Shown piece after piece: positions 5,127-42,352 of a stretch of 64,000 nucleotides of DNA. The notes below the pieces were generated by a model. That model had not been told where the DNA came from and did no database searches. It worked only from the letters and a program-made list of their open reading frames with translations. Position 1 is the first letter of the stretch, and every line of letters starts with the position of its first letter. This DNA is from Dictyostelium discoideum (lineage: Eukaryota), in assembly GCA_000004695.1 (NCBI GenBank), contig CM000150.2, forward strand, positions 3,584,001 through 3,648,000, given 5' to 3'. Made by a program: the position numbers and the translations under genes.

Positions 5127-5159
5127 CTCAAAAAAAAATTATTAAATCACAGAATATGT

Positions 5160-7075: not shown

Positions 7076-7120
<45 letters not shown>

Positions 7121-14413: not shown

Positions 14414-14483
14414 TTTCTTAAGTCTAATGTTATAATGTTTCAATTTTTTAATGGTATAAAAAAAAATTGGGTGTGTTTTTGCG

Positions 14484-14514
<31 letters not shown>

Positions 14515-15075: not shown

Positions 15076-15414
15076 AAATAGCCTTTTTGTGAAAAAAAAA
15101 GAAAAAAAAAAATCTAAAATTGGATCATTGAAAAAATAAAATAAAAAACGAACGAAAATTTTTTTTTAATCGTTTTTAGATGATTTTTCCACTCCTTTTA
15201 TTATTGAATCTTTTTGAACATTTTTCTACCGCTTGGTTTTTTTTTTTTTTACAAAGCTTTGCTAGTTTTTATTTTTTTTTTACACTTTTTAGCTTTGCAT
15301 CTTTAAAACTTTAAAATACGTTTTGGAAAATACTATATTTTTTTTTTTCAATCAACCACACTCTTTTTTTTTTTTTTTTTAAAAAAAATAATCATATTGA
15401 AATTAAAAAAAAAA

Positions 15415-17250
15415 ATGGTAAAATTTAAAATAGTTGTATCATTTTTATTATTTATTTTATATTGTAATTGTTTCACATTTGGTAGTTACACATTTGATAC
15501 AAAAAATTGGTCAACAAATGGTACACTATCATCATGTGTTTTTTATGATTTTGTAAATAACGATTATTATGATTTAAGAGCTATTGTCATACCTGATCAT
15601 CAAGGTGCTTACAGAGCAAGTTTCACAGCTGAACTTTCTGGTGGAATTCAAACACCATATACAATATATTTTAATCCTTGTTTTAATGATCATATGTGTC
15701 CAGGTGGTCTTTCAGTAGGTTGTACTTTTATTGTACAAAATTCACAAAGAGTTCTTAATTCTGTTGGTTTACTTTCAGAATCTCATTTTGTTACATTTAG
15801 AACAGATGGTATTACTATTAAATATCAATCAGCTCTTTTACCATCAACAACATGTGCCTCTAATGGTAACCGTAGAACTATGATTTTAGTTATCACTTGT
15901 GATCCAAATGAACCATTTAAAGTTACAAGTACTTATAACAGAAGAGTGTTATGTGAACATACAATTTATATCGCTTCAAAATTAGTATGCAAAAATAGAG
16001 GAGTATTATTTAATCAAGGTCTATTTTATGATTTAACACCAATGAAATTGTAAGTTATTTAATTCTTTTTCATATTTATTTTTTTTTATTTTTTTTTTTT
16101 TAAAATAATTATCCAAAAATAAAAAAAAAAAAAAAAGGATCAAACACGAAATTTCAAAATAAAAAAATCTAATCTTTTTTCACTTTTTTTTATTTTTTTT
16201 TAATTTTTTTATTTTTATTTTTTTTTCCCACAGATTAACAAGCACTTCACACCAAATCACCAATGATGACCAAACAAAAGATATTCTCTTTAATTTATTC
16301 GGAAATGTAAATAGATGTGGTACTTTCGGTACATCAACATTAAGTTATCAATCATGTATTTTAACAGTTGCTAATAAAGCGATCGATTATAAACTAGATT
16401 CAAGATATGCAACATCACCAAAATCAGTTATGGTAGGATCTCTCAGTCAACCAAGAACAATTACATTTACAAATGATGGAATAACTATAATTTATAGTTC
16501 AACAACTGGTTTCACAGAATGCTCATCAAATGGTAACAAATATTCATCAAAGTATATTTTAATTTGTGATCCATTCACAGAATATTATGTAGATAAATTT
16601 ACATTAGAATCACAATGTATTTATCAAATTAAGGTTTATACTAAATACGCATGTCCAACATTACGTTTATTCAAAGAATCACAATATTATGACCTTTCAC
16701 CATTGATGTTGTAAGTATTCAATTTAATTAAAAAACCTTTTTAATGTTTTATTCTTGCACTTCTAACAATTATTAATAATAAAATAAATAATAGGGATTC
16801 AACAAGAAATTATACAACAGGTCATATTACAGGCGGATATGAATATAATATTGTATTCAATATTGGTAATAAAGCACAAATGTGTAGCGATGCATTTAAT
16901 GATTATTATTTTGCTTGTCAATATGACCCACGTTCTAAAAGTTTTATTCCACTTGCAAAGGCAAGTTTAGGTCAAAGAGTAACATTTGATTTAAATCAAG
17001 TTAAATTCGAATATACTTCACCAACAACAACTAGTTGCCCATTAAATTCCAATAAAAGAACTTTTATTATTGTTTTAAATTGTGATGAAAACCAACATTA
17101 TCAATTAGTTTCAACTTTAGAATCTCCTGTATGTGTATATACAGTAACAATTAAAACTAAATATGTATGTGAATCAACAATTTATTACAATAGAATTAAT
17201 ACTACCTTTTATGATATTACTCCAATAAAAACGTAAGTTTTAAATTAAAT

Positions 17251-17336
<86 letters not shown>

Positions 17337-20300
17337 CTTTATTAACAACCAAAACTATTAATTTTAATTAGAACGAAAGATAGTCCAAAAACTGTAGATA
17401 TTGTTGTTGGTGGATATCCATATAAAGTAAGGGATAATTTTTAAAATTTTTTTTTTTTTTGTTTTTTTTTTTTTAAACAAACATCAAACGTGTCAAACTG
17501 AAATTTAAATATTTTATGTATATATTTAAAAATATTTACTAACTTTACTTTATTAATTTTTTATAACAGCTTTATTACAGTATAGGTAATACTGTTAATT
17601 ATTGTGCAAATCAAGTGGAGTCAGTTCCAGGGGTTGATTATCAAGCTTGTCAATATCTCAGCGGTCTTGTTATTCAAGTCGGTAGTTTAAAAAATACATC
17701 AATGTATCTAAGTAATAATGGTATAAATATATATCATACTACACCATTTGATTTAACCAGAGTATGCCAAAATACAAGATATCAAAGAGTGAACTCTTTA
17801 AATATGGTATGTGATACAACAGCAATAAACGTTGTGGTTAGCGCGACTGAGACTGCCGATGATTGGGCATGTATATATACAATCGAAATTAAAACCAAAT
17901 ATGCATGTCCAATTAATTATGCACCAGTATTGCCAGCTGTTGGAAATCCATGTTTATACAGTTGTACACCACCAGGTGCTTTAAATACAAAAGATATAGT
18001 TAGTGTACTTTTAAATTTGGGCGTTTGTTTCTCAGAGATTAATAAATATGGTACAGGTGCACAATCATTACTTGGTATATTCAACAATACTTGGGTTTTA
18101 AACCACAATGGATATGATGATTGGATGGGTGGACAACTTTATTCACTATTATTAACAGGTAAACCACAAACATCGATTTCACCATATGTTATTTCAATTA
18201 CACATGATAATTTATGTACATATGGTACCAATGGGTTAAGTAAAGCAAAAAATTCAATCAATGATTTTCTTACTATTACAAATGATCTTCTTGAAATTTC
18301 AAATCGTGCAGCCAGTTCAACCGTTACCAAATATACATATTCAGATGGAGCAATAACATTATCAACACATAAACTTTTATCAACATCAACTGGAGGTCTT
18401 GCAATTATTAAATACAAAAATTTGCTATGCTACTATTCAATAGTTTCAAATTTACAAACTTTAGTTATTTCGAATTATTTGCTTTCATGTCCATATTATT
18501 CACCAACCATTACATTGTACAGTTTAACACCACCAACAGGGAAAATTGGAGATACTATCACAATTAATGGCCAAAATTTAGATACAAATAGATATGATGT
18601 TTATTTCAACATAATTGACGACAACAGTAAAGTCAAAGCAACAATAACATCAAGAACCGTAAATTCTGTAAAAGTAATTGTTCCAAATGGTTTTGGTAAT
18701 GCATTAGTCTACACTCAAAATATACTTAATCCAACTACCTCTGATAAACTTTCATTTTCATATCCATCACCAGCGATTGTCAAAGTAATTAGTCAACCAT
18801 TTAGTACAGATATCATCAATAGATTCTTTGTTATTGGTCAAAACCATCGTTCTTTAATAACCAATATCACCATTTATCCATACATCGATAATATTGAAAA
18901 AGAAGCAATTTATTGTGAAATTGAAAAGTATTGTCCAAGTTCATCAAAAATTCCATCAATTCCAGAATCAGCAGTAGGTCATCCATGTATTAATTCAACA
19001 GTTTACTCTGAGAATTCCCAGTTTTTCGATTATTCCAAGTATGATGTTTTTGTTTGTATCAAATCATCATTAGGTGTTGGAAGTGGTATCATTAAATTCC
19101 CATCACAAACATTTACATTTGCATACTCTTATAAAGCACCTCTCTTATATTATACACAACCTGGCATTCGTATTCCAACCGATGGTGGTAGTTTTCAATT
19201 GAGTGGTAAAAACTTTCCACCAACACAAGAAATCATTGATCTCGGTTTAAACACATCTGTAATCATTTGGAATAATGATAATTTTGTTACATTCAAAGGA
19301 ACAAATCTTACAAGCACCAATATCAATTGGAAGAGTTCTAAATCGATTTTATGTGTTGCACCACCAGGTTTCGGTGGACCATTCATCGTTACGGTAACTG
19401 TCGGTAAACAAGCGTCAAAAACTATATATCCAAGTGATTTAAATGAAAATCCAATAGATTATTATTTATATTATTCTCCACCAACTTTGCTCGACATATT
19501 AGCAGTTCCAACTGATGGTGGGGAAACTATAATAAAAGGTACAAATTTTATTCCAGTCTCGCTTGCAGATCAAATTAATAATCAATCATTAATTGGTTCA
19601 CCAAATTCAGTCACGTTTAATAATGTTTTATCTTCATCATGGAAATGGATTAACTCAACACATGTAAAAGCCATCGTACAAAAAGGTATTGGAGCAATCC
19701 TTACAATTGTAAATGTTGGAAGCCAAAGTACTGAAACGAGTCCATATCCCGTAATTTTTTATAAACAACCTGAATTAGATAATAAAAAATATGAAAACTT
19801 TGCAAATAGTAATATTTTAATAACTGGTTCTAATTTTGTACCAGTTGGTGTTTCAGCAGGTTCATCAAGTTCTGTCAAAATTGGAGGTATTCCTTGTAAC
19901 TCTGTAACATGGGTAGATTCAAAATCTGTTATTTGTAATGTACCAATTGGAACTGGTGATAATTTAAATATCCAAGTAACAGTTGGAGGTCAACAAACCG
20001 AATTAAATGATTATTTCTCATATTTAGGGCAATGCGATTTCCTCTGTAGCGATTTATCAAATTTAGTAAGTTTTTAAACATTTTAATTACAGAAAAAAAA
20101 AAAAAAACTAAAAAATACTAATTTTTTACATTATAATCTCAAAGGAATTAGAAAAAGTTATTAGAGAAAATAAAAAAGATTTAAAGAGTACTCTTTTATT
20201 AACAGGTGTATGTTTAGAACAAATCGAGCAATATAATCTCACATATATTAAAAATAAAATTGAATCAAGTTGGATTGGAAGTTCAATTATTAATGATTGG

Positions 20301-23300
20301 ACAAGTGGTAAATTCTATAATTATTTCAAATCATCAGAATCATACTCAACAGTTAAAACACTTGCAAAATATATTACTCCAAAGAATCCATGTATTTATG
20401 ATAATAAAAGAGTAAAGAATTCATTAGATTACCTTTTCGAAATCAATTCAGATATTTTCCATTTAATTGAACTTTCAATTTCATCAAAAATCAGTTATCC
20501 AGATTCACCATATGAAACTTATTTCTATGAATCATCAAGCAACCCAGAGTATGGTCTTTCAATTATTACATTTGATTCAGCAATTTGTAGCTTTACAGAA
20601 TCAACTATTCAAGACTACCAAAGTGGAAAAGTATTACAATCATGTTCAATCATTCCAATTATAAATCAAGTAATTAATCCAACAACAACACTTCAAGCAC
20701 CATATCAATATTCACTTACAATTATTGGTAGATTATTTGATAGTTCAACTAGAATATTTTTATCAGGTTATGAATGTCCAATCATTGGTAATATTATTAC
20801 AAATCAAAATGATTATATTCAAACTCTTAGTTGTTCAGTACCATCAGAAATCAAATCATACTCGGCCTCTCCAATTAGTTTTTACAATGGTTATAGTGAA
20901 AATAATATATATAATTTCTTGTTGGATTTTAAAAAATCATTCTTTTTTATATATCCAATTTCAACAGTAACTCAAATTCAATACCCATCAAGTGGTCCAA
21001 TTCAAATGAATTCTGAAATTAAAGTAATTGGTTTTAATTTCTTCCCATATGGTATTACAAATCCAAGCATTCAAGTTTTTATTGATGATCTTGAATTAAC
21101 AGGTACTATCTTTGGATTAACAAGCATAAATGGAGTTGATTCATTTTCATTTATTGCTTCTGGTTTAGGTTCTTTAAAGTATGTAAAAAAAAAAAAAAAA
21201 TTAAAAAAAAAATTAAATTATTAATATTTAAAATATATTTTTTTCAAAGTTACATTCAATTATTTTATAGTGATAGTTTACCAATGATTATAAACGATGA
21301 TATTAATTTAGAATTTTCATTTGAAAGACCAATTGTTAATAGTATATTACCAACAAATGGAGATTACAATACAAAGGTTACAATTAATGGTAATAATTTT
21401 AGAAAAGGTCAATCAGTAAAAATTGGAGACATATTAGTAAATGATATTGAATTCATTTCAAATCAAAAGATTATTGTTTCAGCACCATTTGGATTTATTA
21501 ATGGACTTGTAGTTGTTTATTCAGATGATCAATACAGTTTAGAAGAAATATCATTTAGTTATCCTTCACCAATTATAGACCAAGTCATTCTTTCAAATTA
21601 TGAATCAAAATTAAACACAACAGGTACAAATTATTTCACAGTAATAGGTAGAGGTTTAGGTACATACATTGCAGAACAAGTCGATATTATTATTAACCAA
21701 GAGTTTTATGCAAGTTGCGAATTCGATTTCTGTGAAAGTTTAGAAATTATTGAAGATATAGATATAAAAGATCAAGGAATTTGTCAATATTTAAAATATA
21801 AAAATTATCAATATATCGATGAAAACTTTGATATATTAAATTGTATTTTAGCTGATTCGATTGGTAAAGATAAATCAATCAGTATCAAAATTTCAGAATT
21901 CCAAAACCAAACTTTCACCTACTCTTATTATGAACCATGGATTGAAAAATTAACACAAAACTCTTCATCAGCAACAACTGATGGTGGTGAAGTTATCGTT
22001 ATAAATGGTTACAACTTTTTACCATTCGAAAATTTAAGTCCATACTATGAAAACAATGAAACTATTGCACAATGGTTAAATCAATCAGAAATATTAATTG
22101 GTGAAAGCTATCTTTGTCAATCAATTAATTGGACCAATTCCTATGAATTAAATTGTACAATCCCACCGGGAATTGGTGTTAATCATACAATCATTGTAAA
22201 AGTAGGCCTTCAATCATCAAATCATACTGATTATTTGTATTCTTACGATCCACCAAAACTTGATACAATCAATAATTCCACCAAAAATGAGACACATTAC
22301 TATTCTTCAACAGATGGTAACAATGAAATTATAATAACAGGTAATAACTTTATTCCAAAAGAGTTATCAGATCATTACAACCAGAATGAAAATAAAACTA
22401 TAAATTCAATACTATTAGGTAAACAATATTGTAATGAAACTATTTGGATTAATTCAACAATAGTTAAATGTAAACCATTAGCAGGTATTGGGTCAAATTA
22501 CAAAATAAACATTAAAGTTGGTAATCAAAATTCAAATGAAACCATTTACTTCTCATATGAGAAGCCAATTTTAGATTTAAAGAATTACACAGGTTCAACA
22601 AATGGTAATACTGAAATTACAATAACAGGTATCAACTTTATTCCAAAAGAATTAGCAGATAATAATAATTTCAATCAATCAGAGAACTATATAATGATTG
22701 GTGATAATAAATGTAATGAAACTATTTGGATCAATTCAACAACAGTTAAATGTAAACCAATATCAGGTACTGGTACCAATCATAGAGTTATCATAACAGT
22801 TGGTAATCAAAACTCAAATGAAACGGTCTACTTTTCATATGATAAACCAATTTTAGATATTAAAAACTATAGTAGTCCAACTGATGGCAATACTGAAATC
22901 ACAATTACAGGTGAAAACTTTATTGAAAATTATAATCAAGAAAAACATAATGAAAATGATAATTTCGTTAGAATCGGTGAAAATAAATGTAATGAAACAA
23001 AGTGGATAAATTCGACAACAATTAAATGTAAATTAATTCAAGGTATTGGTTTAGATTATAAAATAGTTGTAACAGTCGCCAATCAACAATCAAATGAAAA
23101 TGTTTTCTTTTCATATGAAAAACCAATGATTGATAGTAAAACACTATTAGCATCAACCAGTGGTAGTGAAACTATTAAAATTACAGGTACCAATTTCATT
23201 CCATCAACTTTAGTAGAACATTACAACAAAGAAGAAAATAAAGATAACTCAATAAATTCAGTTACTATCAATAACGAGTTTTGTAATGATATTACATGGA

Positions 23301-25732
23301 TTAACTCAACAGAACTAACATGTAAACCATTAGCAGGAGTTGGAACTAATCATACTATATTCATTTTGGTTGGAACTCAAAAATCAAATCAAGTAAAATC
23401 ATTCTCATATAAACCTCCAAAGATTGAAGAGTTTAAATACTACACAGCACCAACACATTCCAATAAAATTATTACTATAACTGGTGAAAACTTTATTCCA
23501 ATCGAATTATTATCAAAAGACAACAGCAATAGTTCAGTACTCATTGATAATATAAAATGTGAAGAAATCAAATGGATTGATTCTACAAAAGTTTCATGTC
23601 AAGTTCCAGTAGGTCAAGGTAAAGATTTATCGATTAAAGTTAAAATTGAAAATCAAGAAACTGAAGAAAATCAACAATTTTCATATGATAAACCATTTAT
23701 TCAATCAATCAATCCAAATAAAGGAAGATGTAATCAAGAAGTATTAATTACAATTCAAGGTGATAGTTTTGGAAAGAGTGATCAACTAATTAAAATTGGT
23801 AATAACGAATGTCAAGATATTCAATTCTATCCAAATCATACATTTACATGTAAAGTTCCAATCGTGGAGAATTCAATTAAATCCATTGTTTTATTAAATG
23901 TTGGAAATCAAGATTCAAACGATAACATTACATATAAATACTATGGACCACCAGAAATTAAAAGTATTGGTTTACCATCATATCTTTCATTCAAAGGTGA
24001 TGATTTAATAACAATCATTGGTAATAACTTTATAGAATATGATGATGGATCTGATGAAATTGTTGTTAAATTTAATAATGAACCAACAGCTATCATTGAA
24101 AAAACAGAAACATCTATTAAAATTAAAACTCTTAGTGGTGATGAATTTAATTTACCAATTGCTGTAGAATTAAATGGTCAAATAAGTAATATCGATACTT
24201 CATTCGTTTACTCAAATCCAATAATTGAAAGTGTAACACCATCATCAAGTAGCTCAAAATCAAATACTCATATCACCATTAAAGGACATAATCTTGGATA
24301 TTCAACAAACACTCCCAAAATTACAATTGGAAGTAGTAATTGTTTAAATATCAATACTATATCTCCAAATGAAGTTCGTTGTATAGTGTTGAAATCAAGC
24401 GCAGGCACTAAACAATTAACATTAACCTATGAAAGTTATCAACCAACCTATTCACAATTCACTCACAAAAACGATGATGACAGTGATAGCCACGATGATG
24501 ATGATGATAAAGACAATAATGGACCAAAAGATACCATAATAAGTATTATCGGAAGTGCAATTGGAGCAGCAGTATCAGCAGCCATAAGTGGACTAATAAC
24601 AAGCATTTTCATTGGTGGAACATCAGTAGCCACAGCAGCAGCAACAACAACAGCAACAGGTACCGCGATTGCAACAGCAACTACAGCGTCAACAGCAACA
24701 GCTATTGCCAGTGCAACGACCGAAGGTGTTGCAGTAGTCTTTACAAGGGTATCAGTAATAGCAGCAACAGCAGGTGGTGTTGTTATTACTGCAATTGTAA
24801 CAGCAACAGTCATCCTTATTTCAGGTGGAAGTACACCATCACCAACTCCAACTATAACTCCAACTATTTCACCAACTCCAACACCAACCGATAACTATTG
24901 GGTAAGATGTATGGTCGATTATTCAAGATTAACTTTACAAGTCGATAATCTTTACGGTCAAGATATAGTATGTATTGATGGTAATGGAATTTCATCAATT
25001 TTCAACGAATCATTCTCTTGTAAACCTGATCTTATTAACGATAGTATGATATGCACTCAACAACATCAAGATGGAACAAATTCAACAACCACATTTGGTA
25101 ATTCAACATTAATTTGTCATATTGACTCAACAAAATCATGTGAAATTTCACCACCATTCATTATACCATCCGATCCAATTGAAGATGATGAATATTCAAA
25201 TATTTTAGAATGTCAATATAATCTCATTGAAAATTCATTATCAACACACTCTAATAATAGTCCATTAAGATGTTATAATAATGAAACTGAAAATTACTTC
25301 ACTATGAATACTACACTTTCATGCTCAAAAGATGAATCATTAAGTCAAGATAACAATACGATTTCTTGTTTAGCAGATACAGATGATACTCAAATCTTTT
25401 TCTTTAAGAACTCAATTACATGCATTACAGATTATCCATACTATAAATGTACAATGAAATCTGAACCATCACAAGATGATAACATAATTCCAGAACCAAC
25501 ATTACCACCAACTCCATCAATTGATGATGATTCCACATGTATTTATGATTCAGCCAATCCATATTCAATAGATCTCCAACCAACGATTGGAACTAATGTC
25601 AAATGTCCAACAAATGAAAAAGAACTTCATTATGATCTTTCAACTTATCTAACATGCACAGATAATACCACCCATAAAAACTCCACTTATTCAGTTTCAT
25701 ATTCAACTTATGTTTGCATTAAAACAAAATAA
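15415..25732 (+). CDS. Giant secreted/membrane glycoprotein, copy B, about 3,200 aa: signal peptide, 4 P-type-lectin (MRH, CI-MPR-like) domains, at least 15 IPT/TIG repeats, Asp/His stretch, Ala/Thr/Gly hydrophobic region, Pro/Thr linker, Cys-rich C-terminal domain. Exons 15415..16049, 16234..16710, 16796..17232, 17372..17426, 17570..20065, 20145..21178, 21271..25732
   Basis: All seven exon junctions have GT..AG boundaries and the phases reconcile (2-2, 2-2, 2-2, 0, 0, 2). The ORF-track pieces 15397..16053, 16430..16714, 16880..17236, 17615..20077, 20919..21224 and 21284..25732 all join into one frame. Each lectin exon ends in YDL(T/S)P(M/L/I) and contains Cys pairs plus Y-x-(I/V)-x-(I/V)-x-T-K-Y-(A/V)-C. 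This resembles the CI-MPR repeat signatures (YDLSxL, FxWxTxxAC), from my recall. The motif IT(I/V)xGxNF(I/L) recurs as in IPT/TIG domains. NxS/T sites are abundant. Confidence 0.6.
17262..17337. repeat. (AAT)n microsatellite inside intron 3 of giant gene B
   Basis: Perfect trinucleotide run visible in the sequence. Confidence 0.9.
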
Positions 25733-28888: not shown

Positions 28889-28944
28889 GTTATTATTTTT
28901 GTTTTATTTATTTTAATATAAAAAAAAAAAATTATTTATATATA

Positions 28945-29015
28945 AAAAAAAAAAGAGTACAGTTGAGAAAAAAAAAAGAGTACAGTTGAGAAAAAAAAAA
29001 GAGTACAGTTGAGAA
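28945..29015. repeat. Three tandem units of a 25-bp motif, aaaaaaaaagagtacagttgagaaa
   Basis: Direct tandem repeat visible in the sequence, immediately upstream of DNase II-C on the divergent side. Confidence 0.85.
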
Positions 29016-29524
29016 AAAAAAAAAAAATTACAATCGATTTGCATCAAAATCAAAATTTTAATCTTAAAAAAAAACAAAAAATTATTTTCCTAATGTTTTT
29101 TTGATTTTAAAGAGATAATTTTTCTTTCTTTTTTTTTCAAAATGCAAACTAAAAAAATTTTCGTTTGTTTTTTTTTTTTTTATATCACAAAATATCGAAC
29201 GGGCACGAGCAAAAAAAAAGCAAGGAGGTGTCTCGAAAAAAAAAATTGTGTTGAGAAATGCAACAATTTTTTTTATTGGTACCCATTACTTCATTAGCAT
29301 CAAGTCCACTTCTCCATACGATAAAAAAAAAAAAAAAAAAAAAAAAAAGGGATCGCTAATTTTTAAAAGAGAAAAAAGTGTTGTTGCTCCACTAAAAAAA
29401 TAAATATATTTTTTTTTTAGAAAAAGATGGTACTTGTTTTGTGAATGAAAATTTTTTTTTTTCTTTTTTTTTTTTTATTTTTTTTTTTTTTTATTTTTTT
29501 TTTTTTGATCATTTTTTTTTAACA

Positions 29525-31579
29525 ATGGAAATAAACTTTTGGAAATTTTATAGAAACAAATATTTGAATAAAATTATATATTCAAATTTTGAATTTTCAA
29601 ATATTTATTCATATGATAGATTATATAATGTTTCAGAAATTTTATCTAAATATACAAATGGTATTGAAATTTTAAAAGATAAAGTCAAAAATAATCAATA
29701 TTTATTTTTTGAAATTAAAATTACAGGTATTATTAGAGAAACATTCCCAAATTTGATCTTAGAGCTAATTAAAAAGGATGAACTATTTTATAATCAATTA
29801 TTTGGTAATAATGAATATTATTCAAAAAACTTTAATCTTAATGAATTATTTATTAAAATTATTCAATCATCAAATTTAGTAGCATTAAAATCATTTATCA
29901 AATTAATATATAAAAAAAACAAAAATAAAATTAATAAATTTAATGATAATTTTAAAGTTTTTAATTATAAAAGTTTAAAAATGTTGAAATATATAATAAC
30001 GATTGGTGGTGATAAACTATTAAAGAATTTAGAATATGGTGATATAGAATTGTTTAATAACTCTTTTAAATTAAAACATTTAATTGAAATTTTAAAATTT
30101 TCTTCACAAACAATGTCAAGCAATAATCAAATAAACAAAGAAATATTAGAATCTAATTTATTTACAAATCAATTAAAAAAATTGTCAATTAATGAAATTT
30201 TAGAAGAATATTCATCAATTTTAAATAATAACCAACAACCAGAAATTAAATTTAAAATATTAGAACTAATTAATTTATTTTATTTAATAATTAATAAAAA
30301 TGAAAATGAAAAACCATTAAATTATTATATTTTATTTAAAAATGAAAATGAAATTGAAAATAAAATTTATCAAGATTATCAACAACAAGAACCGCAACAA
30401 AGACAGTATGGATGTTTTTTTAATTTATTTAAATATAAATCTGAGAAATTAAATCAACTAATTTCAAATTTATTAAAAAGGATTGAACTAAATCCAAATT
30501 CAAATGAAACTACAAGTAAAAGACAAGAGATTGAATATTTAATTAATTCATTTATTTTATCAAGTAATAATATTGAATTGTTAGATAAAGTTATTAAAGA
30601 AAACAATTCAATAAATTTTTATGAAAAATATAAATCAATTACATTTTCAAGAATACTATCAATTGAAATTTTAAATTATTTTTTTGAAAATTATCAAGAT
30701 TTATTTTTTAATGATTTAAATTTGAATTGGGTTAATATTGAATCAATTAAAGTATTTAAACATTATAAATTATTAATGAAAAGTTTAAATAGAAATTTAT
30801 CAATTATCATTAATGATAGTAATCATCAAATTGAATTAATACCAAATCAATTTAAAACAGTTTCAACAAATTTTAAAAAACCAGGTGAATTATTTTTAGA
30901 TTTATTATTAAATTATAATAATAATCATCTTAAAGAAATACCTAATTTGGATTTATTTAAGGAATTAATATATAATTCATTAAATTATTATAATAAGCAA
31001 GATTCATTTATTGAAATTTTAAAAACATTTAAAATTAAATCATCTTCTTTTGATTTTTCATTAATTGAAAATGAAAATCATAATAATTATAAAATTATTA
31101 AATGGTTATTTTCAAAAACACCAACAACATTTAATGAATTTAAAAATTCAAAAAAGGAAATTATAATTAACCAAAATTTAAAAATTAATTCAATTAATAA
31201 TGAACAATTATTTATTTCATTATTTAAAATTGGTTATTATAAAAAAATATTTCAATTATTAGATAATAATCAAATTTCAAGAATGAATATAATTAATTTT
31301 CATTTTCCTGGTAATTCAATAGATACAAAATATTATATTAAATATATTACAGTTGAATATATTGATTATTTATTTAATTTTATTTTTAATAAAAAAATTG
31401 AAATTATGCAGCTTGGTTGTCATTCTAAAAAATTTAATTGGGAAACCTTTATAAATGAAATAATGAGAAATGGTGATTTATTAATTTTTAAACATTTAAT
31501 TAAAAATTATGGTGGTTCATTTATTATTAATTCTCAATTATTTAATTTGGAATTTAAAGAATTTTATAAAAATAAATAA
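29525..31579 (+). CDS. Hypothetical Asn/Lys/Ile-rich protein of about 685 aa (ORF track 29441..31579; likely start MEINFWKFY at about 29525); unknown function
   Basis: A 2.1-kb uninterrupted ORF in a genome where TAA stops are frequent by chance. It has no counterpart in the intergenic spacers of copies A or B. No motif recognised. Confidence 0.5.
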   Translation: MEINFWKFYRNKYLNKIIYSNFEFSNIYSYDRLYNVSEILSKYTNGIEILKDKVKNNQYLFFEIKITGIIRETFPNLILELIKKDELFYNQLFGNNEYYSKNFNLNELFIKIIQSSNLVALKSFIKLIYKKNKNKINKFNDNFKVFNYKSLKMLKYIITIGGDKLLKNLEYGDIELFNNSFKLKHLIEILKFSSQTMSSNNQINKEILESNLFTNQLKKLSINEILEEYSSILNNNQQPEIKFKILELINLFYLIINKNENEKPLNYYILFKNENEIENKIYQDYQQQEPQQRQYGCFFNLFKYKSEKLNQLISNLLKRIELNPNSNETTSKRQEIEYLINSFILSSNNIELLDKVIKENNSINFYEKYKSITFSRILSIEILNYFFENYQDLFFNDLNLNWVNIESIKVFKHYKLLMKSLNRNLSIIINDSNHQIELIPNQFKTVSTNFKKPGELFLDLLLNYNNNHLKEIPNLDLFKELIYNSLNYYNKQDSFIEILKTFKIKSSSFDFSLIENENHNNYKIIKWLFSKTPTTFNEFKNSKKEIIINQNLKINSINNEQLFISLFKIGYYKKIFQLLDNNQISRMNIINFHFPGNSIDTKYYIKYITVEYIDYLFNFIFNKKIEIMQLGCHSKKFNWETFINEIMRNGDLLIFKHLIKNYGGSFIINSQLFNLEFKEFYKNK

Positions 31580-31753
31580 AAATAAAAAAAACTAATAATT
31601 TAAAAAAAAAAAAAAAAAACTTAAATCAATTGACAAATATAACCCAATTAGAATGAAGTTAAGGAAAATTTTTAAAAATGGAAATTGCTTTTTTTTTTTT
31701 TTTTTTTTTTAATTTTATTTTAATTTTTTAACATCCAACAGTCTTAAAAATTT

Positions 31754-32036
31754 TTTTATAGAAAATTACGAGTATGTCGTAATAAAAACTAAAAAACATC
31801 AAAATTATTTTTTTTTTTTAGATGCGATCATTTGTTGATGTTGGAAATCTTTTTTTCATTTTCGAAATGGTTTTTCTGTGAAAATAAAAAAAAAAAAAAA
31901 AAAATCCAACTCAGAAACCTTTTCTTATTGGCGAGTTTAAAAAAAAAAAACTGCCAAACGATCGCATCTAAAAAAAAAAGATAAGTTTGATGTTTTTTAG
32001 TTTTTATTACGACATACTCGTAATTTTCTATAAAAA
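31754..32036. repeat. Inverted repeat: roughly 77-bp arms (outer 47 bp perfect) around a roughly 130-bp spacer; foldback/MITE-like element or inverted duplication of the promoter-proximal motif
   Basis: 31756..31802 'tatagaaaattacgagtatgtcgtaataaaaactaaaaaacatcaaa' is exactly reverse-complementary to 31990..32036. The inner parts, ...tagatgcgatc at 31819..31829 and gatcgcatcta at 31960..31970, are also complementary. The element ends about 110 bp upstream of the giant gene C ATG. Confidence 0.8.
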
Positions 32037-32146
32037 AATTTTGATAAAAATCTTACTATTATTTTTTTTTTTTTTTTTTTTTTTAAAAATAAAAGAGAAT
32101 TAATTGTTTATGAAAAATTACGTTGTAAAAAAAAAAAAAAAAAAAA

Positions 32147-35100
32147 ATGGTAAAATTTAAAATAGTGATATCATTTTTATTATTTATTATATATTGTAAT
32201 TGTTTCACATTTGGTAGCTACCCATTTGATACAAAAAATTGGTCAACAAATGGTACACTATCATCATGTGTTTTTTATGATTTTGTAAATAACGATTATT
32301 ATGATTTAAGTTCTATTATCATACCTGATCATCAAGGTTCTCATAGAGCAAGTTTTGATGCAGAACTTTCTGGTGGAATTCAAACATCTTATTTAATGTA
32401 TTTCAATCCTTGTTTTAATGATCATATGTGTCCAGGTGGTCTTTCAGTAGGTTGTATTGCTATTTTTCAAAATTCGCAAACAATATATAATTCTGTTGGT
32501 TCACTTTCAGAACCACATTTTGTTACATATAGAACAAACGGTATTACTATTAAATATCAATCAACTCTTTTACCATCAACAACATGTGCCTCTAATGGTA
32601 ACCGTAGAACTTTGATTTTAGTTATTACTTGTGATCCAATTCAACAATTTTCAGTAACAAGTACTAATAACAGAAGAGTATTATGTGAACATACAATTAA
32701 TATCGCTTCAAGACTAGTATGTAAAAATAAAGGAGTATTATTTAATCAAGGTCTATTTTATGATTTAACACCAATGAAATTGTAAGTTATTAAATTCTTT
32801 TTCATATTTTTAATTATCCATTTTTTTATTTTTATTTTTTATTTTTATTTTTATTTTTATTTCCCACTTTTTTCAATTCATTTTTTTTAATTTTTTTTTT
32901 TTTTTTTAATTTTTTTTTTTTCCAATAGATTAACAAGCACTTCACACCAAATCACCAATGATGACCAAACAAAAGATATTCTCTTTAATTTATTCGGAAA
33001 TGTAAATAGATGTGGTACTTTCGGTACATCAACATTAAGTTATCAATCATGTATTTTAACAGTTGCTAATAAAGCGATCATTATAAACTAGATTCAAGAT
33101 ATGCAACATCACCAAAATCAGTTATGGTAGGATCTCTCAGTCAACCAAGAACAATTACATTTACAAATGATGTAATAACTATACTTTATAGTTCAACAAC
33201 TGGTTTCACAGAATGCTCATTAAACGGTAACAAATATTCATCAAAGTATATTTTAATTTGTGATCCATTCACAGAATATTATGTAGATAAATTTACATTA
33301 GAATCACAATGTATTTATCAAATAAAAGTTTATACCAAATACGCATGTCCAACATTACGTTTATTCAAACGACAAATACAATATTATGACCTTTCACCAT
33401 TGATGTTGTAAGTATTAAATTTAGTTTTTTAATATTTTATTTATCGTGCCCCTCCTCTAAATAATTAACAATTCGGTAAATCTATATATATAGAGATTCA
33501 ACAAGAAATTATACTGCAAGTTATAGTACAGGAGAAATTATATTTAATATTGGTAATAGAGCACAAATTTGTAACGAACCCTTGAATGGTACAATTTTTC
33601 ATTTTGCTTGTCAATACGATCCAATCAATAGAGTATACAATCAAATCGCTCAAGCAAGTTTAGGTCAAAAGGTAACATATGATTTAAATCAAATTAAATT
33701 TGAATACTCTTCAAGACTAACAACTAGTTGCTCATCAAATTCCAATAAAAGAAATTTTATTATTGTTTTAAATTGTGACGAAAATCAACATTACCAATTG
33801 GTTTCAACTATTGAATCTCCTGCATGTGTATATACAGTAACAATTAAAACTAAATATGTATGCGAATCAACAATTTATTTTAATGCATTTAACTATACCT
33901 ATTATGATATTACTCCAATAAAAACGTAAGTTTAAAGTAATAATAACTAGGTAATAATAGTAAAAATAATATTGATTTTTATTAACAAACACAATATATC
34001 AAACTATTAATTTTAATTAGAACAAAAGATAGTCCAAAAACAGTGGATATCACTGTCAGTGGAGTCACAAATAGAGTAAGAATTTAACTTTTAAAAAAAA
34101 AAACTAAAACTAAAACTAACATATTTATTTATTATTTTTTTAAATAGCTTTATTATGGTATAGGTAATACTGTTAACTTTTGTACAAATCAAGCTACAGC
34201 AGTTCCTGGTGTAGATTATCAAGCTTGCCAATATATCAATGGTGTTGTTATTCATGTTGGTAGTTTAAAAAATACTTCTATATATATTGGTGATAGTAAT
34301 GATATATATATCGCTCATACATCAGTAACTGATTCAACTAGACCACCATGTAGAGGTAAATATCAAAGGGCTGACATTTTAAGTATGACATGTGATCCAA
34401 CGGCTACATACACTTTTGTCAGTGCCAAAGAGGTTTCTTCTAACGGGGGATGTCATTATTATATTTACATTAAAACCAAATATGCATGCCCAATTAATTA
34501 TGCACCAGTATTGCCAGCTGTTGGAAATCCATGTTTATACAGTTGTACACCACCAGGTGCTTTAAATACAAAAGATATAGTTAGTGTACTTTTAAATTTA
34601 GGCGTTTGTTTTTCAGAGATTAATAAATATGGTACAGGTGCTCAATCATTACTTGGTATATTCAACAATACTTGGGTTTTAAACCACAATGGATATGATG
34701 ATTGGATGGGTGGACAACTTTATTCACTATTATTAACAGGTAAACCACAAACATCGATTTCACCATATGTTATTTCAATTACACATGATAATTTATGTAC
34801 ATATGGTACCAATGGGTTAAGTAAAGCAAAAAATTCAATCAATGATTTTCTCACTATCACAAATGATCTTCTTGAAATTTCAAATCGTGCAGCCAGTTCA
34901 ACCGTTACCAAATATACATATTCAGATGGAGCAATTACATTATCAACACATAAACTTTTATCAACATCAACTGGAGGTCTTGCAATTATTATGTATAAAG
35001 GCTTGCTATGCCATTACTCAGTGGTTTCAAATATTCAAACTTTAGTTATTTCGAATTATTTGCTTTCATGTCCATATTATTCACTACCAATTACATTGTA

Positions 35101-38100
35101 TAGTTTAGCACCATCAACTGCGAAAATCGGAGATACTATTACAATTAATGGTGAAAATCTAGATAAAGACAACTATGATGTTTATTTTAAAATCATTCAA
35201 GATTCATATTCTGAAGTCAAAGCAACAATAACATCAAGAACAGCAAATACTGTAAAAGTAATCGTTCCAAAAGGTTTTGGTGGTGCCTTTGTTCTCACTC
35301 AAAATAGAATCAATAAGTTAATCTCTAATAATCTTGAATTTTCATACCCATCATCAACCATTGTCAAAGTAATTAGTCAACCATTTAGTACAGGTATCAT
35401 CAATAGATTCTTTGTCATTGGTGAATATTATCGTTCATTAATAACCAATATCACCATTTATCCATACATCGATAATATTGAAAAAGAAGCAATTTATTGT
35501 GAAATTGAAAAGTATTGTCCAAGTTCATCAAAAATTCCATCAATTCCAGGATCAGAAGTAGGTCATCCATGTATTGATTCAACAGTTTACTCTGAGAATG
35601 CCCAGTTTTTCAATTATTCCAAGTATGATGTTTTTGTTTGTATCAAATCATCATTAGGTGTTGGAAGTGGTATCATTAAATTCCCATCACAAACATTTAC
35701 ATTCGCATACTCTTATAAAGCACCTCTCTTATATTATGCACCACCTGGCGCTCGTATTCCAACTGATGGTGGTAGTTTTCAATTGAGTGGCAAAAACTTT
35801 CCACCAACACAAGAAATCATTGATCTCGGTTTGAACACATCTAAAATCATTTGGAATAATGATAATTTTGTTACATTCAAAGGAACAAATCTTACAAATA
35901 CCAACATCAATTGGAAGAGTTCAGATACGATTGTATTTATTGCGCCACCAGGTTTTGGTGAGTGGATCACCGTTTCAGTAACTGTCGGTAAACAAGCGTC
36001 AACAACTACATACCCAGGTGATTTAGATGAACGTCCAACTGGAAATTATACTTTGCATTATCTATTTCCAACAATTGTTGATTTATCAGCAGTTCCAACT
36101 GATGGTGGTGAAACTATAATAAAAGGTGCCAACTTTATTCCAGCTATCTTTGTAGGTCAAATTAATAATCAATCATTAATTGGTTCGCTACATTCAGTCA
36201 CGTTTAATAATGTTTTATCTCCATCATGGACATGGATTAACTCAACACACGTAAAAGCCATCGTACAAAAAGGTATTGGTACAATCTCTCCAATGGTAAG
36301 AGTTGGTGGTCAAAGATCAGATTTGTACCAACTTTTTGCAACATTATACAAAAAACCTGAATTAGATAATAAAAAATATGAAAACTTTGCAAATAGTAAT
36401 ATTTTAATAACTGGCTCTAATTTTGTACCAGTTGGTGTTTCAGCAGGTTCATCAAGTTCTGTTAAAATTGGAGGTATTCCTTGTAACTCTGTAACATGGG
36501 TAGATTCAAAATCTGTTATTTGTAATGTACCAATTGGAACTGGTGATAATTTAAATATCCAAGTAACAGTTGGAGATCAACAAACCGAATTAAATGATTA
36601 TTTCTCATATTTAGGGCAATGCGATTTCCTCTGTAGCGATTTATCAAATTTAGTAAGTTTTTAAACATTTTAATTACAGAGAAAAAAAGAAAAAAAAAAC
36701 TAAAAAATACTAATATATTATCATTTTTACCTCAAAGGAATTAGAAAAAGTTATTAGAGAGAATAAAAAAGATTTAAAGAGTACTCTTTTATTAACAGGC
36801 GTATGTTTAGAACAAATCAAGCAATATAATCTTACATATATTAAAAATAAAATTGAATCAAGTTGGATTGGAAATTCAATTATTAATGATTGGACAAGTG
36901 GTAAATTCTATAACTATTTCAAATCATCAGAATCATACTCAACAGTTAAAACACTTGCAAAATATATTACTCCAAAGAATCCATGTATTTATGATAATAA
37001 AAGAGTAAAGAATTCATTAGATTACCTTTTCGAAATCAATTCAGATATTTTCCATTTAATTGAACTTTCAATTTCATCAAAAATCAGTTATCCAGATTCG
37101 CCATATCAAACTTATTTCTATAAATCATCAAGTAACCCACAGTATGGTCTTTCAATTATTACATTTGATTCAGCAATTTGTAGCTTTACAGAATCAACTA
37201 TTCAAGACTACCAAAGTGGAAAAGTATTACAATCATGTTCAATCATTCCAATTATAAATCAAGTAATTAATCCAACAACAACACTTCAAGCACCATATCA
37301 ATATTCACTTACAATTATTGGTAGATTATTTGATAGTTCAACTAGAATATTTTTATCAGGTTATGAATGTCCAATCATTGGTAATATTGTTACAAATCAA
37401 AATGATTATATTCAAACTCTTAGTTGTTCAGTACCATCAGAAATCAAATCATACTCAGCCTCTCCAATTAGTTTTTACAATGGTTATAGTGAAAATAATA
37501 TATATAATTTCTTGTTGGATTTTAAAAAATCATTCTTTTTTATATATCCAATTTCAACAGTAACTCAAATTCAATACCCATCAAGTGGTCCAATTCAAAT
37601 GAATTCTGAAATTAAAGTAATTGGTTTTAATTTCTTCCCATATGGTATTACAAATCCAAACCTTAAAGTTTTTATTGATGATCTTGAATTAACTGATACT
37701 ATCTTTGGATTAACAAGCATAAATGGAGTTGATTCATTTTCATTTATTGCTTCTGGTTTAGGTTCTTTAAAGTATGTAAAAAAAAAAAAAATTAAAAAAA
37801 AAATTAAATTAAATTATTAATATATAAATTTCTTTTTAAAAGTTACATTCAATTATTTTATAGTAATAGTTTACCAATGATTATAAAAAATGGTGTTAAA
37901 TTAGAATTTTCATTTGAAAGACCAATTATTAATAGTATATTACCAACAAATGGAGATTACAATACAAAAGTTACAATTAATGGTAATAATTTTAGAAAAG
38001 GTCAATCAGTAAAAATTGGAGACTTATTAGTAAATGATATTGAATTCATTTCAAATCAAAAGATTATTGTTTCAGCACCATTTGGATTTATTAATGGACT

Positions 38101-41100
38101 TGTAGTTGTTTATTCAGATGATCAATACAGTTTAGAAGAAATATCATTTAGTTATCCTTCACCAATTATAGACCAAGTCATTCTTTCAAATTATGAATCA
38201 AAATTAAACACAACAGGTACAAATTATTTCACAGTAATAGGTAGAGGTTTAGGTACATACATTGCAGAACAAGTCGATATTATTATTAACCAAGAGTTTT
38301 ATGCAAGTTGCGAATTCGATTTCTGTGAAAGTTTAGAAATTATTGAAGATATAGATATAAAAGATCAAGGAATTTGTCAATATTTAAAATATAAAAATTA
38401 TCAATATATCAATGAAAACTTTGATATATTAAATTGTATTTTAGCTGATTCAATTGGTAAAGATAAATCAATCAGTATCAAAATTTCAGAATTCCAAAAC
38501 CAAACTTTCACCTACTCTTATTATGAACCATGGATTGAAAAACTAACACAAAACTCTTCATCAGCAACAACTGATGGTGGTGAAGTAATCGTTATAAATG
38601 GTTACAACTTTTTACCATTCGAAAATTTAAGTCCATACTATGAAAACAATGAAACTATTGCACAATGGTTAAATCAATCAGAAATATTAATTGGTGAAAG
38701 CTATCTTTGTCAATCAATTAATTGGACCAATTCCTATGAATTAAATTGTACAATCCCACCGGGAATTGGTGTTAATCATACAATCATTGTAAAAGTAGGC
38801 CTTCAATCATCAAATCATACTGATTATTTGTATTCTTACAATCCACCAAAACTTGATACAATCAATAATTCCACCAAAAATGAGACACATTACTATTCTT
38901 CAACAGATGGTAACAATGAAATTATAATAACAGGTAATAACTTTATTCCAAAAGAGTTATCAGATCATTACAACCAGAATGAAAATAAAACTATAAATTC
39001 AATACTATTAGGTAAACAATATTGTAATGAAACTATTTGGATTAATTCAACAATAGTTAAATGTAAACCATTAGCAGGTATTGGGTCAAATTACAAAATA
39101 ATCATTAAAGTTGGCAATCAAAATTCAAACGAAACCGTTTACTTCTCATATGAGAAGCCAATTTTAGATTTAAAGAATTACACAGGTTCAACAAATGGTA
39201 ATACTGAAATTACAATAACAGGTATCAACTTTATTCCAAAACAATTAGCAGATAATAATAATTTCAATCAATCAGAGAACTATATAATGATTGGTGATAA
39301 TAAATGTAATGGAATTATTTGGATCAATTCAAGAACAGTTAAATGTAAACCAATATCAGGTACTGGTACCAATCATAGAGTTATCATAACAGTTGGTAAT
39401 CAAAACTCAAATGAAACGGTCTACTTTTCATATGATAAACCAATTTTAGATATTAAAAACTATAGTAGTCCAACTGATGGCAATACTGAAATCACAATAA
39501 CAGGTGAAAACTTTATCCAAAACTATAATCAAGAAAAACATAATGAAAATGATAATTTCGTTAGAATCGGTGAAAATAAATGTAATGAAACAAAGTGGAT
39601 AAATTCGACAACAATTAAATGTAAAATAATTCAAGGTATTGGTTTAGATTATAAAATAGTTGTAACAGTCGCCAATCAACAATCAAATGAAAATGTTTTC
39701 TTTTCATATGAAAAACCAATGATTGACAGTAAAACACTATTAGCATCAACCAGTGGCAGTGAAACTATTAAAATTACAGGTACCAATTTCATTCCATCAA
39801 TTTTAGTAGAACATTACAACAATATAAAAAATAAAAATAACTCAATAAATTCAGTTACTATCAATAACGAGTTTTGTAATGATATTGCATGGATTAACTC
39901 AACAGAACTAACATGTAAACCATTAGCAGGAGTTGGAACTAATCATACCATATTCATTTTAGTTGGAACTCAAAAATCAAATCAAGTAAAATCATTCTCA
40001 TATAAACCTCCAAAGATTGAAGAGTTTAAATACTACACAGCACCAACACATTCCAATAAAATTATTACTATAACTGGTGAAAACTTTATTCCAATCGAAT
40101 TATTATCAAAAGACAACAGCAATAGTTCAGTACTTATTGATAATATAAAATGTGAAGAAATCAAATGGATTGATTCTACAAAAGTTTCATGTCAAGTTCC
40201 AGTAGGTCAAGGTAAAGATTTATCGATTAAAGTTAAAATTGAAAATCAAGAAACTGAAGAAAATCAACAATTTTCATATGATAAACCATTTATTCAATCA
40301 ATCAATCCAAATAAAGGAAGATGTAATCAAGAAGTATTAATTACAATTCAAGGTGATAGTTTTGGAAAGAGTGATCAACTAATTAAAATTGGTAATAACG
40401 AATGTCAAGATATTCAATTCTATCCAAATCATACATTTACATGTAAAGTTCCAATCGTGGAGAATTCAATTAAATCCATTGTTTTATTAAATGTTGGAAA
40501 TCAAGATTCAAACGATAACATTACATATAAATACTATGGACCACCAGAAATTAAAAGTATTGGTTTACCATCATATCTTTCATTCAAAGGTGATGATTTA
40601 ATAACAATCATTGGTAATAACTTTATAGAATATGATGATGGATCTGATGAAATTGTTGTTAAATTTAATAATGAACCAACAGCTATCATTGAAAAAACAG
40701 AAACATCTATTAAAATTAAAACTCTTAGTGGTGATGAATTTAATTTACCAATTGCTGTAGAATTAAATGGTCAAATAAGTAATATCGATACTTCATTCGT
40801 TTACTCAAATCCAATAATTGAAAGTGTAACACCATCATCAAGTAGCTCAAAATCAAATACTCATATCATCATTAAAGGACATAATCTTGGATACTTAACA
40901 AACACTCCCAAAATTACAATTGGAAGTAGCAATTGTTTAAATATCAATACTATATCTCCAAATGAAGTTCGTTGTATAGTGTTGAAATCAAGCGCAGGCG
41001 CCAAACAATTAACATTAACCTATAAAAGTTATCAACCAACCTATTCACAATTCACTCATGATGATGACAGTGATAGCCACGATGACAGTGGAAGCCATGA

Positions 41101-42352
41101 TCATAATGATCCTAATGGACCAAAAGATACTATAATAGGTATTATCGGAAGTGCAATTGGAGTATCAGTATCAGGAGTCTTGGCTGGATTAATACCAACT
41201 ATTTTCGGTAATGGAACATCAGTAGCCACTACGGCCGCAACAACAAGGGCGGTAGATACAGCGGTAGCGGCAGCAACTACAGCAGCAACAGCAACAGCCA
41301 TTGCCAGTGCAACGATCGAAGGTGTTGCTGTAGTCGTTACAAGGGTATCAGTAATAGCAGCAACAGCAGGTGGTGTTATCGTTACTGCAATTGTAACAGC
41401 AACAGCCATTCTTATTTCAGGTGGAAGTACACCATCACCAACCCCAACCATAACTCCAACCATAACTCCAACCATAACTCCAACTATTTCACCAACTCCA
41501 ACACCAACCGATAACTATTGGGTAAGATGTATGGTCGATTATTCAAGATTAGCTTTACAAGTCGATAATCTTTACGGTCAAGATATAGTATGTATTGATG
41601 GTAATGGAATTTCATCAATTTTCAACGAATCATTCTCTTGTAAACCTGATCTTATTAACGATGGTATGATATGTGCTCAACAACATCAAGATGGAACAAA
41701 TTCAACAACCACATTTGGTAATTCAACATTAATTTGTCATATTGACCCAACAAAATCATGTGAAATTTCACCACCATTCATCATACCATCCGATCCAATT
41801 GAAGATGATGAATATTCAAATATTTTAGAATGTCAATATAATCTCATTGAAAATTCATTATCAACACACTCTAATAATAGTCCATTAAGATGTTATAATA
41901 ATGAAACTGAAAATTACTTCATTATGAATACTACACTTTCATGCTCAAAAGATGAATCATTAAGTCAAGATAAAGATACGATTTCTTGTTTATCAGATAC
42001 AGATGATACTCAAATCTTTTTCTTTAAGAACTCAATTACATGCATTACAGATTATCCATACTATAAATGTACAATGAAATCTCAATCATCACCAGATGAT
42101 AACATAATTCCAGAACCAACATTACCACCAACTCCATCAATTGATGATGATTCCACATGTATTTATGATTCAGCCAATCCATATTCAATAGATCTCCAAC
42201 CAACAACTGGAACTAATGTCAAATGTCCAACAAATGAAAAAGAACTTCATTATGATCTTTCAACTTATCTAACATGCACGGATAATATCACCCATAAAAA
42301 CTCCACCTATTCAATTTCTTACTCAACTTATGTTTGTATTAAAACTAAATAA
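32147..42352 (+). CDS. Giant MRH-lectin/IPT-TIG glycoprotein, copy C; exons 32147..32781, 32929..33407, 33494..33925, 34021..34075, 34148..36652, 36738..37771, 37864..42352. Exon 2 carries a 1-bp deletion, so this copy may be a pseudogene or require exon skipping
   Basis: Same seven-exon structure and splice phases as copy B. Exon 2 lacks a G between 33079 and 33080 (gcgatcattat versus gcgatcgattat in copies A and B). This gives an in-frame TAG in the B-like frame, and ORF 33124..33411 is in the shifted frame. Exons 3 and 5 N-terminal lectin regions are diverged from B. Exons 6 and 7 are near-identical to B apart from a longer Pro/Thr linker (3 extra TPTI units) and a variant Asp/His stretch. 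Confidence 0.5.

Follow-up and report, generated by a model that had tools for sequence, protein, structure and literature searches.

The window analyzed in this study (64 kb of chromosome 1 of Dictyostelium discoideum AX4) carries three tandem units, in each of which a DNase II-like gene and a giant gene with a TIG/IPT domain face each other. In unit C, an inverted repeat is located upstream of the giant gene, and the initial annotation offered two explanations of its presence, i.e. insertion of a MITE/foldback element or inverted duplication of the native promoter element. Which of these accounts for the structure, and what it may mean for the giant gene, is the question addressed below.

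Organization of spacer C

Spacer C (positions 28889-32146; 3,258 bp) extends from the start of the DNase II-like gene (28888, minus strand), on whose minus-strand exons DNase_II Pfam matches were found, to the ATG of the giant gene at 32147. The corresponding spacers of units A and B have about 315 bp and about 1 kb (the latter with an internal tandem duplication), and therefore the 3.3-kb spacer is, as originally noticed, unique to copy C. An orthologous region was identified on a 5.8-kb contig (L001) of an assembly labelled as D. discoideum, which may represent another strain or a cryptic species. The ORF and the start of the giant gene are the same there, and the sequence identity to spacer C is about 94%.

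The first part of the spacer (28889-29524), as delimited from the sequence, is a divergent intergenic region separating the DNase II-like gene (minus strand, ATG at 28888) from the gene DDB_G0295763. It contains a perfect tandem repeat (23 nt x 3.4, at 28945-29023, identified with TRF) and shows no significant similarity to spacers A or B. The 2.1-kb ORF previously placed at 29441-31579 is real, but position 29441 is a GTG inside a poly-T tract and the coding sequence starts with the ATG at 29525. The intact CDS (29525-31579, plus strand) has 684 codons and its product is identical to the AX4 protein DDB_G0295763, the sole difference being a predicted 75-nt in-frame intron.

Comparison of DDB_G0295763 with its L001 orthologue (dN/dS of 0.24 at dS of 0.075) points to purifying selection. 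Nineteen distant relatives of this protein were found in D. purpureum, D. discoideum and D. dimigraforme, some of them with a SAP domain; DDB_G0295763 is without this N-terminal SAP-domain extension. The protein gave no Pfam match, and its AF2 model (pLDDT 70, i.e. moderate confidence), which is all helical, had no significant fold match in the PDB (best E >= 0.02, TM <= 0.25), the best matches being apparently generic alpha-solenoids. Judged from this model, DDB_G0295763 is a predicted all-alpha, helical-repeat hypothetical protein belonging to a small, dictyostelid-only family, and no mention of it was found in the searchable literature. This ORF is a constrained, lineage-restricted, ordinary gene and not a transposase. 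The extra ORF is an already known hypothetical gene, and together with the probable rearrangement described below it makes a real, if fairly ordinary, finding.

The 3' flank of the ORF (31580-31746, plus strand) is AATAAA-rich and includes an A18 run and a T22 run (31689-31710). At the other end of the spacer, the proximal promoter and 5' leader of giant gene C (32043-32146, plus strand, again delimited from the sequence) consist of a T23 run (32062-32084) followed by an A-rich leader and the ATG. The transcription start site of giant gene C is likely to lie just after this T23 run, considering that a TSS in D. discoideum is usually preceded directly by a poly-T tract (PMC6161686).

Structure of the inverted repeat

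The repeat is composed of two 88-nt arms (31747-31834 and 31955-32042), which are 97% complementary (3 mismatches) and are separated by a 120-nt, non-palindromic loop. It is therefore not the 280-bp perfect repeat described initially. A perfect outer part does exist, but it comprises 57 nt beginning at 31747 (31747-31803) instead of 47 bp beginning at 31754. The motifs tagatgcgatc (31819-31829) and gatcgcatcta (31960-31970) are present inside the arms as reported; their labelling as promoter-like is without support, the motif merely belonging to the duplicated stretch. The outer end of the left arm (AAAATTTTTTTATAG) forms a TATA-like box on the minus strand, and the right arm contains a TATA-like TATAAAAAAA at 32029-32038. 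For a 46-nt probe derived from the arm, 0 chance matches are expected in the window, and the structure is the sole complex inverted repeat of at least 45 nt in the 64 kb, all others being of low complexity (A/T or AAT).

Fold-back chimeras occur in clone-based sequencing, and such a chimeric clone could have introduced an assembly or cloning artefact into the AX4 reference. However, there are 3 differences between the arms and the loop consists of native sequence, unlike in a perfect snap-back. Moreover, the repeat is base for base the same, including the 3 arm mismatches, in another assembly (L004; GCA_054883475.1), in which 8 kb around it, on different contigs, match the window with only a 3-nt difference in poly-A length. 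As this independent assembly reproduces the structure, the artefact explanation can practically be dismissed unless L004 was reference-guided.

Comparison with the orthologous locus

The L001 contig contains only one copy of the arm, in the right-arm orientation and contiguous with the flank down to the giant-gene ATG. Positions 31962-32160 of the window align directly to L001 3057-3260, and the right arm (31955-32042, plus strand), collinear with L001 up to the ATG, would therefore be the in situ, native copy of a segment here designated y2. The left arm (31747-31834, minus strand) appears to be an inverted copy of this native proximal-upstream segment, since, once reverse-complemented, it matches L001 3049-3136. 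The longer stretch 31746-31926, likewise reverse-complemented, aligns end-to-end and in a single block with L001 2951-3136, which means that the left arm carries ~95 nt of extra native sequence, unlike the arm of a transposon. This extra sequence lies in the loop (31835-31954, minus strand), for which BLAST gave a match to L001 on the minus strand only, and which aligns poorly in the direct orientation. The loop from 31835 to ~31926 is an inverted copy of a segment (y1) located directly upstream of y2 in L001, while the right end of the loop (31927-31954) is a junction sequence of uncertain origin.

The complete order in L001 is: 3' end of the ORF, poly-T, segment X (~176 bp), y1 (~95 bp), y2 (~88 bp, with a TATA-like end), proximal promoter and ATG. 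Relative to this order, AX4 has the contiguous y1-y2 block inverted and a direct y2 kept beside the proximal promoter, and lacks X and the direct y1. On the left side, AX4 positions 31711-31746 have no alignable counterpart in L001 (no alignment to segment X scored above shuffles) and the left breakpoint is thus undefined. Segment X itself gave a weak match only, to an intron-like AT-rich stretch.

These results bear on the proposal that a MITE or a foldback-type, non-autonomous DNA transposon was inserted upstream of giant gene C. D. discoideum has small inverted-repeat DNA elements, e.g. thug-S (PMC4894637), and the structure resembles such elements in its size of ~300 bp, its terminal inverted repeats (of 88 nt, a feature that is not family-specific), its short internal region and its AT-rich intergenic setting. 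However, the target-site duplication sought at the flanks (which end with CAGTCTTA on the left and start with GATAAAAA on the right) was not found: there is no symmetric direct repeat of at least 3 nt, and the outer boundary reads AAAATTTT. The two arms are the only copies in the 64-kb window, and no similarity to transposases was found. No empty site was seen either, since L001 has, collinear with the right flank, one arm and the loop sequence as native DNA in single copy, which means that half of the putative unit is native at the orthologous site. In addition, the TATA-like box of the gene itself lies within the right arm, and a metagenome scan with a 20-mer common to AX4 and L001 returned two chance matches only, both on unrelated 33%-GC contigs. 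An inserted mobile element is thus highly improbable.

Origin of the inverted repeat

The second of the two original proposals, i.e. inverted duplication of the native promoter element, agrees with the alignments, in which the right arm with its TATA-like box remains in place and the left arm together with ~95 nt of the loop is the inverted copy. We consider it probable that the inverted repeat arose by local rearrangement of giant gene C's own upstream DNA and not by insertion of an element.

The arrangement rc(y2)-rc(y1)-y2 would be the expected leftover of one event. This could have been a micro-inversion of ~180 bp with a staggered right breakpoint that spanned y2 and was then filled in, giving a breakpoint duplication of ~90 bp; a two-jump replication template switch is an equal option. 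The outer arm boundary lies in the self-complementary AAAATTTT, which could have supplied microhomology. Ranz et al. reportedly put forward in 2007 a staggered-break model, in which inverted duplications arise at inversion breakpoints. The locus resembles those breakpoints in having an inverted segment with the inter-nick stretch at both ends in opposite orientation and one copy collinear with the ancestral flank, and in that no repeats or transposons are required. In contrast to the Drosophila breakpoints, where kilobases to megabases are inverted, only ~180 bp would have been inverted here, and another ~176 bp would have been lost at the other breakpoint. Replication template-switch mutations, including quasi-palindrome events, are said to have been described by Loytynoja and Goldman in 2017. 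Such a switch would likewise yield, in one event, an inverted adjacent copy and loss of the intervening bases, with the switch point at the self-complementary boundary; however, the described events mostly involve tens of bases whereas ~180 nt would have been copied here, and the second junction (31927-31954) is without clear microhomology.

The rearrangement most likely would have taken place in the AX4 lineage after its split from the L001 lineage, and the single-copy state is probably ancestral, with the repeat derived in the AX4 lineage. Searches for an outgroup returned, for the ORF, AX4 and a single further D. discoideum assembly only, gave no matches for exon 1 of the giant gene, and for the DNase II-like gene matched D. 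discoideum only. In a three-way alignment the two AX4 arms share ~6 differences from L001 and differ from each other at 3 positions. The arms being closer to each other than to L001 is compatible with a young duplication, and would also be compatible with an old repeat whose arms underwent gene conversion.

The arms of short-spaced inverted repeats can be homogenized, and the opposite polarity may be envisaged, in which rc(y2)-loop-y2 was already present in the common ancestor, recombination between the arms flipped the loop in the L001 lineage, which then lost its left arm or had it replaced by X, and gene conversion homogenized the arms in AX4. Consistent with such a history, L001 has the ~176 bp (X) missing from AX4, and the AX4 orientation of the loop gives the top, though weak, match to spacer B, where the sequence has the same orientation. 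This similarity depends strongly on how it is assessed. With strict BLASTN, the comparison of spacer C with A and B detected only the inverted repeat itself, and permissive scoring detected only compositional noise. Composition-aware Smith-Waterman scores for spacer C versus A and B looked significant against mononucleotide shuffles, but no longer did so when all window segments served as a broad empirical null. When AT-rich segments only were used as the null, spacer B1 in the plus orientation ranked first at z of about 3.4, a match that is suggestive at most of the AX4 loop orientation being the older one. Furthermore, the loop and spacer B match through a generic T-run/CACA promoter-like motif (TTTTTNTGNGAAAA), which is found in spacer A too. 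An ancestral repeat would also require at least 2 events and ongoing conversion, versus one event for a local rearrangement, and segment X of L001 shows no detectable trace of a left arm. We therefore regard it as a possible but doubtful alternative to a local rearrangement in the AX4 lineage.

Possible hairpin RNA and invertible cassette

Regardless of its origin, the repeat could be an RNA hairpin locus, transcribed from the T22 run or by read-through from the ORF and diced to small RNAs matching the promoter. Folding predicts a very stable hairpin (-128 kcal/mol, z = -19 versus shuffles), with the T22 run 37 nt upstream of the left arm. In D. discoideum, DrnB-dependent miRNAs are derived from hairpins, and their primary transcripts begin downstream of T-runs (PMC6161686). 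However, the arm strings were not found in the miRNA supplements of two studies (PMC6161686 and PMC4894637), and the canonical miRNA precursors reported there do not resemble a near-perfect stem of 88 bp closed by a 120-nt loop. An Rfam search at E <= 5 gave two chance-level matches only, far below the gathering scores. Such a role of the repeat thus seems improbable. Young plant MIRNA genes, according to what Allen et al. reportedly proposed in 2004, were born by inverted duplication, and the likeness consists in a recent inverted duplication producing a long, near-perfect hairpin, which may feed Dicer. The difference is that the duplicated DNA here is promoter/upstream sequence and not a target coding region.

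The loop holds a T-run and a CACAGAAAAA initiator-like element, which in L001 is directed toward the giant TIG-domain gene but in AX4 faces the opposite way. By analogy with bacterial invertons, the 88-bp arms might be imagined as a recombination-driven, invertible promoter cassette of a eukaryote, although we give this very little credence. If it were true, flipping of the loop between the arms could toggle upstream transcription of a member of a cell-surface-type gene family, and either orientation could also yield promoter-matching hairpin small RNAs. The loop has the same orientation in both AX4-type assemblies (AX4 and L004), with no sign of flipping. A scan for bacterial-type promoters and terminators, which is irrelevant for this eukaryote, performed no better than shuffles.

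Possible consequences for giant gene C

The local rearrangement would have kept the core promoter of giant gene C, i.e. the TATA-like box and the T-run, while ~270 bp of upstream DNA would have been lost or turned round. The T-run/initiator-like element would now face away from the gene, and a 296-bp hairpin-forming stretch would have been created. The repeat may, as suggested initially, insulate or alter the expression of this copy.

The exon-2 frameshift attributed earlier to copy C was confirmed: a 1-nt deletion after 33079 (33079-33080, plus strand; GCGATC-ATTAT versus GCGATCGATTAT) is present in AX4 and L004, and absent from L001 and from copy B. Both the frameshift and the inverted repeat co-occur in AX4 and both are absent from L001. 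As the same lineage carries the frameshift, the repeat would most simply be read as a scar, neutral or slightly harmful, in a gene copy undergoing decay.

For the annotation of this locus, it follows that a candidate mobile element should be struck from it, the structure being a small structural variant upstream of one of the tandem TIG-domain genes. As regards the evolution of the gene family, of the recently triplicated gene pair, one copy is diverging in the lineage of the laboratory strain, where it is probably also decaying, while the diverged isolate represented by L001 keeps a simple promoter and an intact exon. If the polarity is confirmed, the locus would offer a clean example of a small-scale inversion with breakpoint duplication, or of a large template switch, in a genome with extremely high AT content.

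Spacer architecture of the tandem units

The window has an A+T content of approximately 75-80%, with poly-A and poly-T tracts between genes, and three units (A, B and C) follow one another in tandem within it. In each, a minus-strand DNase II-like gene lies opposite a plus-strand giant gene, which combines MRH-like N-terminal exons with many IPT/TIG domains. The initial annotation described an enlarged spacer in copy C alone, and measurement between the divergent start codons confirmed this: spacer C (28889-32146), which contains an ORF and an inverted repeat, is 3,258 bp long, versus ~315 bp for spacer A and ~1 kb for spacer B. Strict BLASTN searches revealed no similarity of spacer C to spacers A and B. 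Spacer B carries a tandem duplication of the entire divergent promoter (14400-14960 and 15000-15480), which takes in the first codons of the DNase II-like gene (tatttatttctcat) and of the giant gene (atggtaaaatttaaaatag...), and thus creates a truncated extra start for both.

The giant genes also differ in length. Giant gene A (5156-11338) is ~4 kb shorter than B (15416-25732) and C (32147-42352), and the inter-copy offset along these genes shifts from ~10.25 kb to ~14.1 kb. Three internal repeats of ~280 bp, found in B (22409-23205) and C (39002-39798), have no counterpart in A.

The ORF of spacer C is a real gene

The 2.1-kb ORF, initially placed at 29441..31579, is a real gene: its translation is identical to the D. 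discoideum AX4 protein DDB_G0295763, except for one predicted 25-codon in-frame intron, and this match places the window on AX4 chromosome 1. Its start had to be moved to the ATG at 29525, the GTG at 29441 being located inside a poly-T tract. The AX4 gene model splices out this 75-nt GT...AG "intron" (30407-30481); the frame is open across it, two other assemblies annotate the stretch as coding (684 and 691 aa), and the predicted intron may be an artefact of gene prediction.

An exhaustive HMMER search identified 19 relatives of the protein (25-43% identity), and those looked up were all hypothetical proteins of dictyostelids (D. purpureum, D. discoideum and D. dimigraforme). Several of them have an N-terminal SAP domain, which is missing from DDB_G0295763. 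A Pfam search of the protein found no domain, and its AlphaFold model, which is all helical (pLDDT 70, pTM 0.69), had no significant match in a PDB fold comparison. Nothing found for the ORF points to a transposase.

The region could be compared with L001, a 5.8-kb contig of a diverged assembly labelled as D. discoideum (GCA_054859385.1), which shows ~94% identity to the window from the DNase-like start through the ORF into the giant gene. Against its L001 orthologue the ORF has a dN/dS of 0.24. The ~6% nucleotide difference across the region and the dS of 0.075 within the ORF are far above the divergence expected among isolates of one species; L001 may represent a cryptic or mislabelled species, or polymorphism may be unusually high in this tandem TIG-gene region. 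Between the start of DNase II-like gene C and DDB_G0295763, at 28945-29023, lies a perfect tandem repeat with a 23-nt unit (AAAAAAAAAAGAGTACAGTTGAG x 3.4); L001 aligns here in separate pieces, with a gap across most of the array.

The inverted repeat as a probable duplication of native promoter DNA

The inverted repeat is composed of two 88-nt arms (31747-31834 and 31955-32042), 97% complementary and separated by 120 nt. The initial annotation was correct as to its presence but not its extent (31754..32036, with the outer 47 bp perfect), since perfect complementarity covers the outermost 57 nt. The chance expectation for a 46-nt arm probe is 0, the RNA fold reaches -128 kcal/mol (z = -19), and no second non-low-complexity inverted repeat of such size was found anywhere in the 64 kb. 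An assembly artefact was ruled out because L004, an independent AX4-like assembly (GCA_054883475.1), reproduces the same structure, matching the surrounding 8 kb with a 3-nt difference in poly-A length as the sole deviation.

The inverted repeat is absent from L001, which carries a single arm copy in right-arm orientation, unbroken with the flank to the giant-gene ATG. The order in L001 is poly-T, segment X (~176 bp), segment y1, segment y2 (the arm sequence) and the proximal promoter, versus poly-T, 36 unplaced nt, the reverse complements (rc) of y2 and y1, a junction of ~28 nt, y2 and the proximal promoter in AX4. Judged by this alignment, the right arm is native DNA, because L001 has y2 once and collinear with its flank. 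This arm contains a TATA-like TATAAAAAAA (32029-32038). A T23 run (32062-32084) comes 23 nt downstream of this box, and beyond the run lie an A-rich leader and the giant-gene C ATG; T-runs of D. discoideum are usually placed just upstream of transcription start sites (PMC6161686).

The reverse complement of 31746-31926 (left arm plus ~95 nt of the "loop") aligns to L001 2951-3136 as a single block, whereas the loop in direct orientation aligns poorly. Of the two origins initially proposed, these data support an inverted duplication of native promoter DNA, which makes the repeat another instance of an already known type of small structural variant. The other, a MITE/foldback insertion, was rejected as far as the window and L001, short of the whole genome, can show: L001 keeps one native arm copy, and no target-site duplication was found at the repeat flanks.

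A true mobile element of very different character lies elsewhere in the window. It is a non-LTR retrotransposon (55054-59904, minus strand), GC-richer (up to 41% G+C) and with strong GC skew, with coding sequence for an endonuclease (Exo_endo_phos) and a reverse transcriptase (RVT_1). A tRNA-Thr(AGT) gene (60185-60256) lies immediately upstream of it on the same strand, and the element resembles tRNA-gene-targeted retrotransposons of the TRE type.

Origin of the rearrangement

We infer a single-event mechanism, which would leave rc(y2)-rc(y1)-y2. It may have been a micro-inversion in which the right-hand break was staggered across y2 and the ends were then filled in, the same model as that reportedly put forward for the inverted duplications that accompany inversion breakpoints in Drosophila. 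The other candidate is a replication template switch with two jumps, for which the self-complementary AAAATTTT at the outer edge of the arms would be a plausible switch point.

The AX4 arms have ~6 differences from L001 in common and 3 between them, a pattern that fits a duplication later than the split of the AX4 and L001 lineages. Gene conversion between arms could imitate a young duplication. It is unlikely that the repeat is old and that the L001 lineage turned the loop round and later lost one arm. The best-scoring, if weak, match of the AX4 loop orientation is to spacer B, in the same orientation, which would favour the AX4 loop orientation as the older one; this match depends on a generic T-run/CACA motif and has no significance against a broader null. 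Searches with the ORF, giant-gene exon 1 and the DNase II-like gene found no outgroup locus.

Structural consequences for giant gene C

After the proposed duplication, AX4 kept the core promoter (TATA-like box and T-run), while ~270 bp of upstream DNA were lost or turned round. A T-run and CACAGAAAAA element in y1 points toward the giant gene in L001 and away from it in AX4, where a strong hairpin-forming stretch lies 104 nt upstream of the giant-gene C ATG. That the repeat acts as a hairpin small-RNA locus seems improbable: a T22 run precedes the left arm by 37 nt, but an Rfam search gave no match to the repeat and the arm sequence is not in the D. discoideum miRNA supplements of PMC6161686 and PMC4894637.

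The exon-2 frameshift reported for copy C was verified as a 1-nt deletion after 33079, the site being intact in paralogue B and L001; it is not a sequencing error, because it is also found in L004. Taken most simply, the repeat would be a scar, neutral or slightly harmful, in a gene copy undergoing decay.
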